Shown in pieces: positions 23,637 to 28,436 of a stretch of 64,000 nucleotides of DNA (position 1 is the first letter of the stretch; every line of letters begins with the position of its first letter). Below the pieces are notes generated by a model. It was not told the DNA's origin and ran no database searches. It worked only from the letters and a program-made list of their open reading frames with translations. Made by a program: the position numbers and the translations under genes. This DNA comes from a phage: assembly GCA_024672315.1 (NCBI GenBank), contig GCA_024672315.1_4714.1. One strand, given 5' to 3'.

Positions 23637-24143
23637 TCATGCTAAAATTCCCTCATTACCTAACAGTCGATTACGATGACGTCGGTACATTTGACAAAGT
23701 GTTGTGATTTGATAATGTTTGTTGTAGCGTACCTCGATACGTTTTTGCACCTCTTTCCATGGAAGTTTATCGTATTGTCGATAACGATGGATTTCATTTA
23801 ACATACGAAGACGAGTAGGATCGGTGTTCTTTATCGTCGTGAGCTTCACGCGTTGATATCCACGCTGTAGTCCCGATTCGGAATACGTGACATCAAACTC
23901 ATCCTGAATGATGGTGATGATCTCCCGCCACCGACGGTTCTCGCCATCACGTAAATGGACAACCCGCGATAAGATATCGTTCCGATTACGATGACTCAGT
24001 TTGATGTTAAGCATTGAAGCAATCGCGCTAATTGCTCTCTGACTCCGTCCTAACGCTTCACCGATTTCTTTCGATGTCATGACGCCCGCGTTTCGGCGTA
24101 TGAATGCGATTTCGGTTGTTGTGTATTCTTTACCTACTGCCAT
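23637..24143 (-). CDS. Myb/SANT-like HTH repeat protein, paralog A (168 aa)
   Basis: Repeated units of type TSKEIGEALGRSQRAISAIASML; C-terminal QxY/RW-type ending shared with paralogs. Confidence 0.5.
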   Translation of the reverse strand: MAVGKEYTTTEIAFIRRNAGVMTSKEIGEALGRSQRAISAIASMLNIKLSHRNRNDILSRVVHLRDGENRRWREIITIIQDEFDVTYSESGLQRGYQRVKLTTIKNTDPTRLRMLNEIHRYRQYDKLPWKEVQKRIEVRYNKHYQITTLCQMYRRHRNRLLGNEGILA

Positions 24144-24607
24144 TTCTTACCACGTGTGTTATAATAGTAACGCTGACAAAGATGTGTGTGACGATACTCC
24201 CGTTTGAACTCGACGCTGATAATGCGAGCAACTTCTCTCCAGTTAACCCCTTCACGTCGAAGTGCTGTAATACGGTCTGAAATTCTGCACCATTCATCCG
24301 GGTCGTATCGTCGTAGCTTGAGTCGTCGTATTACGGAGGCGACGCTCGCTCTCGATCGGCCAAGATGATTTGACAGCTGTTTGACCGAGTATCTGTGGAT
24401 ATTGTCGCGAATATAGGAAATCTCGTTGTCCGTATATGCCTCATTGGTTCTCGACGAAGGGAACAGCATATACAGCTTATTCTTAATCGCGCTTTCTGTG
24501 CGTTGAAATACAGCAGCCAGCTCACTAACCGGTGGTCTGGGTATCCGGTCCGCGTAATCCTCGAGGCGTGAGAGTTCCTCATCTGTCCAGCGATGGTACT
24601 TGCGCAT
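24134..24607 (-). CDS. Myb/SANT-like HTH repeat protein, paralog B (~158 aa)
   Basis: Start reassigned to ATG 24607 (MRKYHRWTDEELSRL) with AAGGAG RBS; W-x-EEL...RTESAIKNKL repeat. Confidence 0.5.
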   Translation of the reverse strand: MRKYHRWTDEELSRLEDYADRIPRPPVSELAAVFQRTESAIKNKLYMLFPSSRTNEAYTDNEISYIRDNIHRYSVKQLSNHLGRSRASVASVIRRLKLRRYDPDEWCRISDRITALRREGVNWREVARIISVEFKREYRHTHLCQRYYYNTRGKKWQ

Positions 24608-25082
24608 GGGCAACTCCTTTGTTTTTCGTGTAGTAACACCAACGTTGATACAACGCATGTTTATTCGTTGTAATCCCAAATTTAACAACAACGTCGTAGG
24701 TAATAACATCCCAATTTTGGGTGACGTTAAGTCGTTCCGCGATAAACGCGATAATCGCTTCCCGTTCTTGCTTGGTTAGCGCACGACGAATTCCATTAAG
24801 CCGTATAAACTGACGAACCGAGTCATACGAACGGTTTAAATCGTACGCAATCTCCCGCAGCGATTTTTGTCTGATTACCGACTTGATGTACGCACGTTCT
24901 TCTTCCGTATACGGCCGATGCTTTTGACGTTGACGTATTCCTAAGCGTCCCAGACGCGCGTCGACGCTGGCGCGTGTTCGTCCTGTCCGTTGCGCGATTT
25001 CATCAATCGTCATCGACGTGTTCAAATACAGATGCGTAACATCTTTCAGCTCGTCGTCACGCCACGGTTGAGATCGTCCCAT
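24579..25082 (-). CDS. Myb/SANT-like HTH repeat protein, paralog C (167 aa)
   Basis: PWRDDELKDVTHLY...IDEIAQRTGRTRASVDARL and second repeat YTEEERAYIKSV...LREIAYDLNRSYDSVRQ. Confidence 0.5.
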   Translation of the reverse strand: MGRSQPWRDDELKDVTHLYLNTSMTIDEIAQRTGRTRASVDARLGRLGIRQRQKHRPYTEEERAYIKSVIRQKSLREIAYDLNRSYDSVRQFIRLNGIRRALTKQEREAIIAFIAERLNVTQNWDVITYDVVVKFGITTNKHALYQRWCYYTKNKGVAHAQVPSLDR

Positions 25083-25560
25083 CTTGTATCCCTCTTTTCT
25101 TTCTATGATGCCACCAACGCTGATAGACAGCCTGCTTCGTACGTGTTATACCGAAATGCGCATTAACCCGTTCAGCAATGTGGTGCCAATCCTGCGTTTC
25201 TTCCAACAATGTATCAACGAAGGCTATGAAGATCTTAGTATCAGCCTCGCTTAACCGCTTGAAACCATGACGATGTGCTATCGTTCTGATACTGTTTGGA
25301 TCCCTGTTTAAATCGCGCGCGAGCTGTTTATAACTTTTGTGTTTGCAGTGCACTCTGATGTATTCCAACTCATCGACACTGAAACGTTTATGCGGTTTAC
25401 GACGTTCAACATTTAAGTATATCAACCTCGATTTAATTGCACCGTACGTTGTTTCCATGATTTCTGCGATTTCACGGATTTTTAATTTCGGGTGACGATA
25501 GTACAATTCCAGCAACTGTTCATCATCCTTACGATTCCATCGTCGTACTGGAGGTTTCAC
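25057..25560 (-). CDS. Myb/SANT-like HTH repeat protein, paralog D (167 aa)
   Basis: RRWNRKDDEQLLELYY...IREIAEIMETTYGAIKSRL; GTG start with AGGAGA RBS. Confidence 0.5.
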   Translation of the reverse strand: MKPPVRRWNRKDDEQLLELYYRHPKLKIREIAEIMETTYGAIKSRLIYLNVERRKPHKRFSVDELEYIRVHCKHKSYKQLARDLNRDPNSIRTIAHRHGFKRLSEADTKIFIAFVDTLLEETQDWHHIAERVNAHFGITRTKQAVYQRWWHHRKKRGIQDGTISTVA

Positions 25561-26041: not shown

Positions 26042-26053
26042 AGTGCCACCCCA

Positions 26054-26374
26054 TCAACGTCTTACTTTAAGCGATATCTTGTTTCGAAAACAATAACACC
26101 GGATGGCGTGTACGCTACGATTCATTATTTCAGCAATTTCATTTAGGGTATGCTTCTTCGCAAGCATCGCAACCCGGGTTCTTTCTTCTGGTGTGTAAAC
26201 TCCCCCACGAGGAGGTAGGTCACCTCGTCGTTTCCTCAACTTGAGGTAACGTGCGCGAATAGAACACGGTGTCCGATCCATGCAACGCGCTATTTCTTTA
26301 TAGCTCGCTTTTGGTGATGTGCTAAGAATAAGTAGCAGTGCTTCATCTTCTTTATCCGTCCAACGTTTACCCAT
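26054..26374 (-). CDS. Myb/SANT-like HTH repeat protein, paralog F (~106 aa)
   Basis: Start reassigned to ATG 26374 ([14 protein letters not shown]...[22 protein letters not shown]) with AAGGAGA RBS. Confidence 0.5.
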
Positions 26375-28436
26375 CTTTTCTATTCTCCTTAACTTTATCA
26401 ATCATCGAAATCAGCAGGTTGATACTTTCTTCTTCGTTATCGGTTGCATCCCAGTCTCGAATAACGGGAATCCCCAACGCTTCCGCTTTCGCGAGTTTAC
26501 TGCCGGGATTACTTCCACAGATAACAACCGTCGTGTTTTTACTCACACCGCTTGTAATCGTGCCTCCCATGTTCGCTAAACGCGCGGCAAGCCGATTTCT
26601 ATCGATGCTGTTGAAACTTCCCGTGATAACGACCCGTGTATCTAATAACGGTAACTGATTCGTATCACGTTCCTTAACTGGAGCTGGCGTTACACCGACA
26701 TCGTACAACAGATCGAAGATATATCCGCGATTTGCTTTATCGTAGATGTACGTTAAGATCTGATCGGCTGTGATCTCACCGATACCTTCAACGGCGAGTA
26801 AGCTTTCTTTATCAGCAGCTAAAAAGCTATCTACCGTCTTAAATGCATTAGCAAGATCGCGTGCCGTGCTTTTACCCACTGTAAGAATACCTAACCCGTA
26901 AATGAAACGTGCTAACGTAGTCTCTTTGGATTTCTGAATAGCGTCGATCACCTTGAAGGCGCTGTAATCCGTAAACCCATCCAGTTGGCTAACCTGCTCA
27001 CGAGTTAACAGATAAAGGTCAACCGCCGATTGCACCAACCCACAGTTGTAGACCTGTTCCAAGAACCGTTCACCAACACCTTCGATATCCATGACGTCAC
27101 GACTCACCCAATGAATAAGACGCGCTACCGCTTGGTCAGGACAAGTTCCGGTTGCAGGACAACGCCAACGCGCTTCATTTTCCTTTTTCGTTAATGTCGT
27201 CCCGCAGGTTGGGCAATGGGTTGGAAAAATGATTTCTTTTCTTTCCTCGCCGGGACGCACACTCACGATTTGAGGAATGACATCACCAGCACGACGAATA
27301 ACAACATCATCGCCAACGCATACACCTAACCGATTTATTTCGGCTTCGTTGTGTAACGTGATGTTGCTTATCGTTGTACCCCCAACGAACACGGGTTCGA
27401 CGCGAGCCACCGGTGTGATGCTTCCTGTTCGACCAACCTGAAAATCAACATCAAGTAACCGGGTGGCTTTTTCCTGCGCAGGGAATTTCCATGCCCGTGC
27501 CCAGCGTGGTGCACGAGACGTTGCGCCGAGCTTCTCCTGCATCGCAACATCATTCAGTTTTATTACCATGCCGTCAATATCAAACAAGCGCTTCTCACGC
27601 CATGTAAGCATGTCACGATACACCACAATCAACTCTTCTGTCCCCGTGGCGATATACGATTCGTTATATAGACCTAATCCCAACGCGGCAACAAACCCCA
27701 TTTTTGATCCCTGCGTCGCAAACGTGTAGGTGTCATCACCATCCACGAAAACATCGTAGGGACAGAACAACAAACGACGTTTTGCGACGGTTTGCGGATC
27801 CAAACGTCGTAACGTCCCTGATGCTGCGTTACGTGGATTTACGTACGGTTTTTCATTGTTTGCAACGAGTTCTGTGTTCAAGAGTTCAAAGGCGTAGTGC
27901 GGCATCAACACTTCACCACGAACTTCGATTTTCTGCGGTGTCGATTCCCCCATTTTCAATTGTGGAAAGACACCCATTACCGTACGGATATTCGACGTAA
28001 CATCTTCACCTTGAACACCGTCGCCACGAGTTACCGCACGTTGCAACAAACCATCCTCGTAATGAATCGCGATCGCTAACCCATCGTATTTGGGTTCGAT
28101 CAAGTATTCGAGCGTGTCTTCTGCGACCCCTAAGGTTTTTGCGATGGACTCCGTCCAATTCCGCAACTCTTCTTCACTAAACAGGTTATCCAAAGACATC
28201 ATCGGAGACGGATGCTTCACGGTCTCAAAACCATCGACCGGCGTACCTACACGGCGGGTTGGGCTGTTAGGTGAAACCTGGTCAGGATGCTGCGCTTCAT
28301 ATTCCCGTATCGTTCTCACCATGTTATCGTATTCTTCATCGGTATGTTTCGGTTCCGCTTTAACATGGTAATAATAATCAGCTTCAAGGATCGTATCGAT
28401 CAGTTTCAGATAGTCTGCTGTGGTGGTGATTTTCAT
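26367..28436 (-). CDS. ligA: NAD-dependent DNA ligase (689 aa)
   Basis: Adenylation motif [17 protein letters not shown] (KxDG), Cys4 zinc finger CPTCGTT...[11 protein letters not shown]-terminal HhH/BRCT-like region; LigA-type architecture. Confidence 0.85.

Follow-up and report, generated by a model that had tools for sequence, protein, structure and literature searches.

A 64,000-nucleotide (nt) stretch of phage DNA (GenBank assembly GCA_024672315.1, contig GCA_024672315.1_4714.1; hereafter, the window) contains six adjacent minus-strand genes, designated p1 to p6 (23637-26374), which lie directly 3' of the gene encoding a nicotinamide adenine dinucleotide (NAD)-dependent DNA ligase. The array is a lineage-specific six-gene expansion of D5-related proteins with multiple helix-turn-helix (HTH) domains and a private C-terminal unit; it is not an orphan module. 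Most likely, with a confidence somewhat better than even, its products are regulators that bind DNA as monomers through several HTH domains and have different targets. The region of the array is 95% identical in nucleotides to Escherichia phage vB_EcoM_Goslar (NC_048170, 117151-122729), which infects E. coli and is a nucleus-forming jumbo phage of 237 kb (Chimalliviridae). The genes p1 to p6 are the counterparts of Goslar gp119 to gp114, five of the six being labelled "hypothetical" in RefSeq.

Paralogy and repeat units of the six proteins

An earlier note made from the sequence of the window had proposed that six consecutive leftward genes are paralogous. BLASTP analysis confirmed this for all six proteins, which are related pairwise (E 1e-4 to 1e-27; 20-37% identity). 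A profile built from the six sequences found no seventh member of the family among all open reading frames (ORFs) of the window. According to the same note, each protein contains two or three units of one pattern. A regular expression of this pattern matched 11 units, two in each of p1-p5 and one in p6, and gave 0 matches in the 25,466 residues of other window ORFs and 0.002 matches per shuffle of the six proteins. The pattern thus survives the control, and the six-gene repeat array is far beyond chance. The 11 matches are units of the types designated here as A and B; the third type, C, falls outside the pattern.

The architectures of the proteins are A-B (p1), A-B-C (p2-p5), and B-C-C' (p6), the family profile matching p6 twice across its C region. 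Units A and B fit the consensus [WYF]-T-x-x-E ... EIA ... R[ST]xx[SA][IV] and share homology (92% probability and P 9e-8 in hhalign). Comparison of unit C with A or B in the same program revealed no significant sequence similarity (P ~0.1). In unit C, helix 2 begins with a conserved W and ends with an F, and helix 3 carries a Q-R-[WY] motif. This motif had been described as a C-terminal ending shared by all six proteins, which is not the case: it is internal to unit C, and p3-p6 have it, p2 has a degenerate form, and p1 has none. The homologues of p1 in the related loci L003, L009, and L010 (152-157 aa) carry a C unit, and p1 has therefore lost it in the lineage of Goslar and the window. Unit C is a lineage-specific three-helix unit, a divergent Myb-like bundle.

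Fold class and predicted structures

The assignment of the repeats to Myb/SANT-like HTH domains was upheld at the level of the fold class by Pfam scores, profile matches in the Protein Data Bank (PDB), and three-helix bundles in AlphaFold2 models. In the comparison with Pfam models, support for Myb was found for p1 (Myb_DNA-bind_6, 33.8 bits at a cut-off of 22.9; Myb_DNA-binding, 33.2 at a cut-off of 24.4) and for the C unit of p3 (residues 104-151; Myb_DNA-bind_6, 27.3 bits versus 22.9), all above the gathering score, and support for sigma-70 region 4 was found for p2 (Sigma70_r4_2, 34.3 bits), p3 (27.3, A unit), and p4 (26.7), also above the gathering score. The matches of p2, p4, p5, and p6 to PF00249/PF13921 remained under the gathering score, so that the profile check proposed in the earlier note gave a positive result for Myb in p1 and the C unit of p3 and for sigma-70 region 4 in p2-p4, and a Myb score under the cut-off in p2 and p4-p6.

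The claim that the proteins keep the aromatic spacing of Myb did not hold. The three aromatic residues, approximately 18-19 residues apart in Myb, are not retained: conservation is limited to the first position (W in unit A, Y/F in unit B), and the second and third are occupied by I/A and L. The aromatic residues of unit C (W124, F135, and W/Y148) have a spacing unlike that of Myb. Likewise, the three regularly spaced tryptophans of c-Myb and other eukaryotic Myb/SANT proteins (1h88, WER, Reb1, SNAPc4) are not conserved in the six proteins, whose units A and B reach equal or higher scores as sigma-70 region 4 or GcrA-type HTH. Judged from these sequence comparisons, A and B are HTH domains of the sigma-70 region 4/GcrA/Myb-like kind, as much sigma region 4/GcrA-like as Myb-like. 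HTH units fill the whole length of each protein. No Pfam or NCBIfam match to sigma region 2 was found in the six proteins (sigma models 13-22 bits versus cut-offs of 43-323), and the GcrA model (PF07750) scored 14 bits versus a cut-off of 26.9, the C-terminal sigma-70-binding domain of GcrA being absent.

Structure prediction, suggested previously as a check, showed nine helices in three bundles in both modeled proteins. In the p4 model (predicted local distance difference test, pLDDT, 83.5), the helices span residues 9-21/26-33/37-46, 60-69/75-82/86-95, and 104-118/124-135/141-154; the p6 model has a pLDDT of 80.8. The three three-helix bundles, with helix 3 in the place of the recognition helix, are joined by short linkers in both models, and the low predicted template modeling scores (0.44-0.47) are expected for beads on a string with flexible linkers. 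All six proteins are strongly basic (isoelectric point, pI, 9.7-10.4; net charge +11 to +15).

A search of the PDB with the family profile recovered Cbp2 (2lvs) with E 3.4e-9 and c-Myb with 8e-5. Among natural solved structures, 2lvs is the best match; an apparently designed repeat protein (8vd6, "CAP REPEAT") ranks above it. Foldseek also placed 2lvs first among PDB structures, followed by 1h88 (c-Myb R1R2R3 on DNA), 1u78 (the bipartite domain of Tc3), Reb1, SNAPc4, and Pax6, all with E-values >0.01. The C-unit profile found no Myb chain and nothing significant in the PDB, the best match being an unrelated GTP-binding protein (E 0.013). Archaeal Cbp1 and Cbp2 are monomers reading one extended DNA site (PMC3597662, PMC10883916), and they resemble the six proteins as small basic proteins made of imperfect homeodomain-like HTH repeats (three in Cbp1, two in Cbp2) with basic linkers. 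They differ in being encoded by single archaeal chromosomal genes and in having known targets, namely CRISPR repeats. The NCBIfam Cbp1 model (NF040595) gave scores of 20.0 and 17.4 bits, below its cut-off of 140, and the resemblance to 2lvs is architectural.

Relation to D5 of phage T5 and to the wider repeat family

The statement of the earlier note that the array is not a standard phage module turned out to be too strong, given that all six proteins match a phage protein family, that an independent alignment of D5 proteins is matched with a probability of 96%, that the D5 gene of phage T5 likewise follows NAD-ligase genes, and that more than 15,000 proteins contain the A/B repeat. The matches to PHROG 323 ("transcriptional regulator, D5-like") have E-values of 1.2e-18, 6.2e-18, 1.4e-14, 4.1e-18, 3.8e-19, and 7.6e-10 for p1 to p6, respectively, and that of p5 spans residues 2-152. 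The prototype of this family, T5 D5 (T5.118, 255 aa), matches it with an E-value of 1.2e-71. Since the Goslar proteins may already belong to PHROG 323, an independent alignment of 22 D5 homologues was made. According to hhalign, the p1-p6 family is similar to this alignment with 96.3% probability (E 1.8e-9, 100 columns), units A and B being paired with D5 residues 133-235; with the single T5 D5 sequence, the probability was 72% (E 3.3e-5). Across 35 kb of T5, D5 was the one match of the family profile.

D5 consists of four tandem units of the pattern [WF]-T-P-[DE]-E ... EIA..xG[RK]..x[VI], as in A and B, and its gene is located directly 3' of the NAD-ligase genes ligA/ligB, just as the array follows the ligase gene. 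The RefSeq note for T5.118 describes a DNA-binding protein which is needed for DNA replication and late transcription and is involved in shutoff of expression. The differences are substantial. D5 is a single-copy protein of 255 aa with four units, whereas the Goslar-type proteins are six paralogues of 106-168 aa; its pI is 6.3 versus approximately 10 in the six; it has a conserved C-terminal DYDGAAKRAKLD tail, which the six proteins lack, and no C unit, which p2-p6 carry. The six are also encoded by a nucleus-forming jumbo phage that is independent of the host RNA polymerase. The full-length architecture of D5 was not recovered, just two units being aligned. Because D5 differs in length, charge, tail, and C unit, the six proteins are distant relatives of T5 D5 and not its orthologues. 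The shared position after the ligase gene is suggestive and no general rule.

An exhaustive HMMER search among 1.84 billion representative proteins detected 15,405 proteins at E<=1e-3, of which 3,106 reached E<=1e-10. The majority are 300-900 aa long and are matched 4-10 times by the profile, in its A-B part alone; P0140, for example, is a phage SF2 helicase fused to nine A/B-type repeats (Pfam Myb_DNA-binding, 2e-41). This wider family was visible only by the exhaustive search, a word-indexed protein search with the family alignment giving 19 matches. The HMMER matches indicate that the A/B unit is a widespread SANT/Myb-like HTH repeat. The long arrays share this unit with the six proteins but are formed by one long polypeptide, in many cases with an enzyme fused to it, whereas the A-B-C architecture with its C unit was seen in the same search in Goslar-like phages only. 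No homologues at the BLAST level outside Goslar-like phages were found by tblastn of p4 against 50,697 phage records or by IMG/VR pattern scans with p5, p6, and the ligase.

In phage T5 itself, T5.108 (9546-12332 in the T5 locus L005) is annotated with IPR001005, an instance of helicase or origin-binding proteins fused to SANT/Myb-type repeats. The HTH repeat is therefore reused, in P0140 and T5.108, as a DNA-targeting module on replication enzymes.

Conservation and allelic replacement of the array

The array was found in 12 of the 12 Goslar-like loci examined, one of which (L018) is a 4.4-kb fragment covering p3-p6 only. It comprises five or six genes in a fixed order, directly after the ligase gene. 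The ratio of nonsynonymous to synonymous substitution rates (dN/dS) in the group of the window, Goslar, and L003 is 0.03-0.34 for the six genes and 0.07-0.10 for the ligase gene; all six genes are under purifying selection.

Comparison of the window with L010 revealed a mosaic of identities (Table 1). The p6 protein is the most conserved member (88-99% identity across all loci), and p2 is 88-92% identical in L003 and L010 and absent from L009. The proteins p3 and p4 show 45-48% and 38-39% identity, respectively, to the syntenic gene products in L009 and L010. In BLASTN, the window and L010 had no nucleotide similarity over 26036-26345 and 24120-25567, between flanks that are 90-93% identical. 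L009 contains the same divergent alleles as L010, without p2, and L018 also has divergent p3-p5 alleles. In this mosaic, p2 and p6 are conserved anchors, and p1 and p3-p5 behave like cassettes that can be exchanged, the breakpoints falling close to gene borders. What is new here is an array that is conserved in 12 Goslar-like genomes, yet in which p1 and p3-p5 have been swapped for alleles of 38-50% identity in phages with flanks of 90-97% identity. Such replacement of four members in near-identical genomes provides natural variants for the study of target specificity, host range, and immune sensing.

Presence and absence of genes were also observed around the array. Goslar gp120 (235 aa; L001 7246-7953) is inserted between the ligase gene and gp119, at a site corresponding to 26367-26377 of the window, and is missing from the window, L003, L009, and L010; inspection of its translated sequence led to its rejection as a paralogue or an obvious endonuclease. 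On the other side, all that remains of the Goslar gp113 acetyltransferase gene is 30 codons (MSIKTVVINERPFYCVIASTAADPHLYPHK*) at 23548-23640 (-), approximately 860 bp (gp112 and gp113) having been deleted in the window and retained at this junction in Goslar, L003, L007, L009, and L010. Upstream, a Dam-like MethyltransfD12 gene is present in L003 (426-1250), L009 (1877-2365), and L010 (1379-2206) and missing from the window (~29701-29735) and Goslar.

Possible function of the array

Each protein is made of independent three-helix HTH domains strung on short basic linkers. In the function that we favor, it would bind double-stranded DNA as a monomer, its two or three recognition helices occupying consecutive positions along the major groove and reading an extended asymmetric site, as in c-Myb R2R3, Tc3, and Cbp1/Cbp2. 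The six proteins would have different targets and would regulate transcription and/or replication, on phage or host DNA. We infer the DNA binding, the monomeric reading of several sites, the distinct specificities, and the regulatory role alike. Distinct targets are probable because the helix-3 residues vary between paralogues (3.3-3.9 residue types among 5-6 paralogues) and stay constant within orthologue groups (invariance of 0.82 for helix 3 of unit B and 0.86 for that of unit C). The regulatory role is likely by analogy with D5 and with the transcription-factor suites of jumbo phages (PMC7824862). Among the latter, Bacillus phage G encodes several paralogous Myb-type (RsfA-like) HTH proteins read as phage-specific transcription factors (Iyer et al. 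2021, PMC7824862), and it resembles the Goslar lineage in being a jumbo phage with several such paralogues. It differs in belonging to another phage group, which is not nucleus-forming, and in the HTH subfamily, and no contiguous array with allelic cassettes has been described in it.

Several observations weigh against this function. Contrary to expectation, the divergence of the paralogues is even over all helices and not concentrated in the recognition helices, which weakens the argument for distinct specificities. The D5-like function cannot simply be transferred, since D5 has a pI of 6.3, four units, and a conserved tail. No D5-like gene was found beside the ligase gene in four other ligase-bearing jumbo phages (RSF1, Joad, BRkr, and N1M2). 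Since the family occurs in Goslar-like phages alone, it does not belong to the transcription machinery at the core of the chimalliviruses. Literature searches found no experimental or localization data on Goslar gp114-gp119, and neither the two recurrent intergenic motifs nor a direct-repeat scan of the window yielded a candidate target motif tied to the proteins.

A less likely alternative is an architectural role, in which the proteins would coat DNA in a largely sequence-independent manner and thereby organize or shield phage DNA or compact the host nucleoid. D5 is classically described as an abundant protein with cooperative, non-specific binding of double-stranded DNA, and homology to it would suit this role, as would the very high positive charge of the six proteins, the dosage that several co-expressed copies could give, and the many proteins in which 4-10 A-B pairs form a long array. 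However, the six paralogues have diverged to 20-30% identity and are kept in a fixed order under purifying selection, which points to non-redundant roles, and dosage does not need paralogue-specific helix-3 residues that are conserved among orthologues.

The swapped alleles bear on an interface with host immunity, an improbable explanation that is compatible with DNA binding. The proteins would be sensed by host defence through detection of D5-like HTH domains, or would be aimed at host or defence DNA, and the divergent p1 and p3-p5 alleles would be the trace of an arms race. The contrast between these four members and the ligase, p2, and p6 (Table 1) agrees with this, as does the copy number of five or six. 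We know of no defence system that senses these six proteins. Low dN/dS values within allele types (0.03-0.34) argue against diversity selection, and plain recombination with a more distant Goslar-like lineage could explain the swap without it. In favor of an immune role, it has been reported that T5 D5 triggers the type IX retron-Kva2, with toxicity to E. coli, and that escape phages carry D5 mutations (bioRxiv 10.64898/2026.07.11.737809). Through D5, the array is connected with a regulator that ranks among the oldest unexplained ones in phages and that was recently reported to trigger a retron.

On a more speculative view, which we also hold improbable, the genes would form a modular, recombining specificity locus with p2 and p6 fixed and p1 and p3-p5 as exchangeable triple-HTH cassettes. 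Their specificities for DNA (or a nucleic-acid mimic) would be under diversifying pressure from sensors of D5-like HTH proteins such as retron-Kva2, or would serve to silence host or defence loci, or would steer the phage RNA polymerases, which lack a sigma factor, to other sets of promoters. No sigma factor has been found in phiKZ-like phages, and Chimalliviridae use two phage RNA polymerases (PMC7824862).

These polymerases bear on a further explanation, which appears very doubtful: the proteins might be promoter-specificity factors, similar to sigma region 4, for the phage multisubunit RNA polymerases without a known sigma factor. Neither sigma region 2 nor any other module for polymerase binding is present in them, the HTH units accounting for the full proteins, and the family is limited to the Goslar lineage, whereas the polymerases are common to all Chimalliviridae; a free swap of four members for alleles of 38-50% identity would be unexpected in core initiation factors. 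It is hardly credible that the genes are free-standing relics of homing-endonuclease DNA-binding modules, selfish or decaying and without phage function: weaker matches, in the HTH parts only, to HNH families (phrog_1891, 1.7e-8; phrog_8446, 3.7e-9; phrog_7545, 4.3e-7), BFVD matches to phage endonucleases with tandem HTH modules, and the presence/absence polymorphism of the neighbors gp120, gp112, and gp113 are outweighed by the lack of any Pfam nuclease family in the six proteins and in every allele, by purifying selection, and by the same gene order in 12 genomes.

Regulation by multi-HTH DNA-binding proteins, the function preferred here, would be of interest since the timing of gene expression in Chimalliviridae is poorly understood, and the locus offers six candidate DNA-binding regulators in Goslar, a model phage of E. 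coli.

Gene boundaries and organization of the locus

Nearly all genes of the window are directed leftward, in long tightly packed blocks. The position of the array beside the ligase gene, noted earlier, is as close as an 8-nt overlap, the ATG of p1 lying over the ligase stop codon. The reported overlaps of 10-29 nt between genes were also found, at p3/p4 (26 nt), p4/p5 (29 nt), and p5/p6 (10 nt); gaps of 12 and 13 nt separate p1/p2 and p2/p3. The array appears to be co-expressed with the ligase gene, judging from this close packing, the overlaps, and the lack of any visible internal terminator.

Table 1. Features of the ligase-p1-p6 locus in the window and amino acid identity of the encoded proteins to those of locus L010.
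Feature	Goslar counterpart	Position (strand)	Length (aa)	Start codon	Units or composition	Identity, window vs L010 (%)	Remarks
DNA ligase gene (NAD-dependent)	gp121	26367..28436 (-)				96.5	ORF, Goslar gp121 annotation, Pfam domains in related loci
p1	gp119	26054..26374 (-)	106	ATG	A 26237-26368, B 26069-26200; no C	50	
p2	gp118	25574..26041 (-)	155		A 25913-26035, B 25745-25876, C 25583-25741	92	
p3	gp117	25057..25560 (-)	167	GTG	A 25414-25545, B 25255-25386, C 25093-25251	48	
p4	gp116	24579..25082 (-)	167		A 24942-25070, B 24783-24914, C 24618-24776	38	
p5	gp115	24134..24607 (-)	157		A 24464-24595, B 24308-24439, C 24146-24304	46	identity is to the type II alleles
p6	gp114	23637..24143 (-)	168		B 23997-24128, C 23838-23993, C' 23664-23822	93	longer start than gp114
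Hairpin		23511..23538 (-)			CCCTCCC-GGCAT-GGGAGGG then CTTATGCCG		3' of p6; read in sequence

The end of the array had previously been placed at 26401, which is an upstream TTG; the ATG at 26374 agrees with the start of Goslar gp119. A Shine-Dalgarno-like sequence precedes five of the six start codons, for example, AGGAGA 8 nt 5' of the GTG of p3 and AAGGAG 7 nt 5' of the ATG of p5; that of p6, whose ATG is located 7 nt ahead of the p5 stop codon, is weak. This p5 stop codon (TAG, 24134-24136) is CAG in Goslar and L003, resulting in a gp115 of 176 aa there. Since the N-terminus of p6, MA(V/A)GKEYTTTEIAFIRRNAG (24081-24143), is kept in Goslar and L003, the start given in RefSeq for Goslar gp114 (147 aa) probably lies 21 codons too far downstream.

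Intergenic elements and other observations

The hairpin 3' of p6 (Table 1) is, judging from its sequence, the probable end of the p1-p6 transcription unit and the start of the next one. GC-rich hairpins of the CCCTCCC...GGGAGGG type followed by T(T)ATGC recur in at least eight intergenic gaps of the window (near 232-283, 4540-4716, 16603-16695, 37125-37289, 38848-38899, 45162-45227, 58349-58467, and 61224-61508). We take this combination to be a putative terminator together with a phiKZ-type "TATG" promoter. In addition, the exact 17-mer CACGGCTATATTACTTA occurs twice in intergenic gaps, at 19976-19992 (-) and 47019-47035 (-), with 0.16 occurrences expected by chance at <=3 mismatches. Six loci also contain it (Goslar and the close relatives L013, L014, and L016), and TATATTAC within it resembles the core of phiKZ early promoters. 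No link of the hairpin with TTATGC or of CACGGCTATATTACTTA to the six proteins was found. Sites resembling sigma-70-type promoters are depleted at 22500-38000 of the window (13 versus 29.7 +/- 5.0 in shuffles), which fits a phage not relying on the host RNA polymerase.

Outside this region, a 1259-aa ORF (5278-9057, -) contains, at 5744-7291, seven copies of a tandem repeat with a period of approximately 120 nt (reported as 300-nt units, 62-72% identical). By its position, this ORF corresponds to the tail fibre gene region of Goslar.

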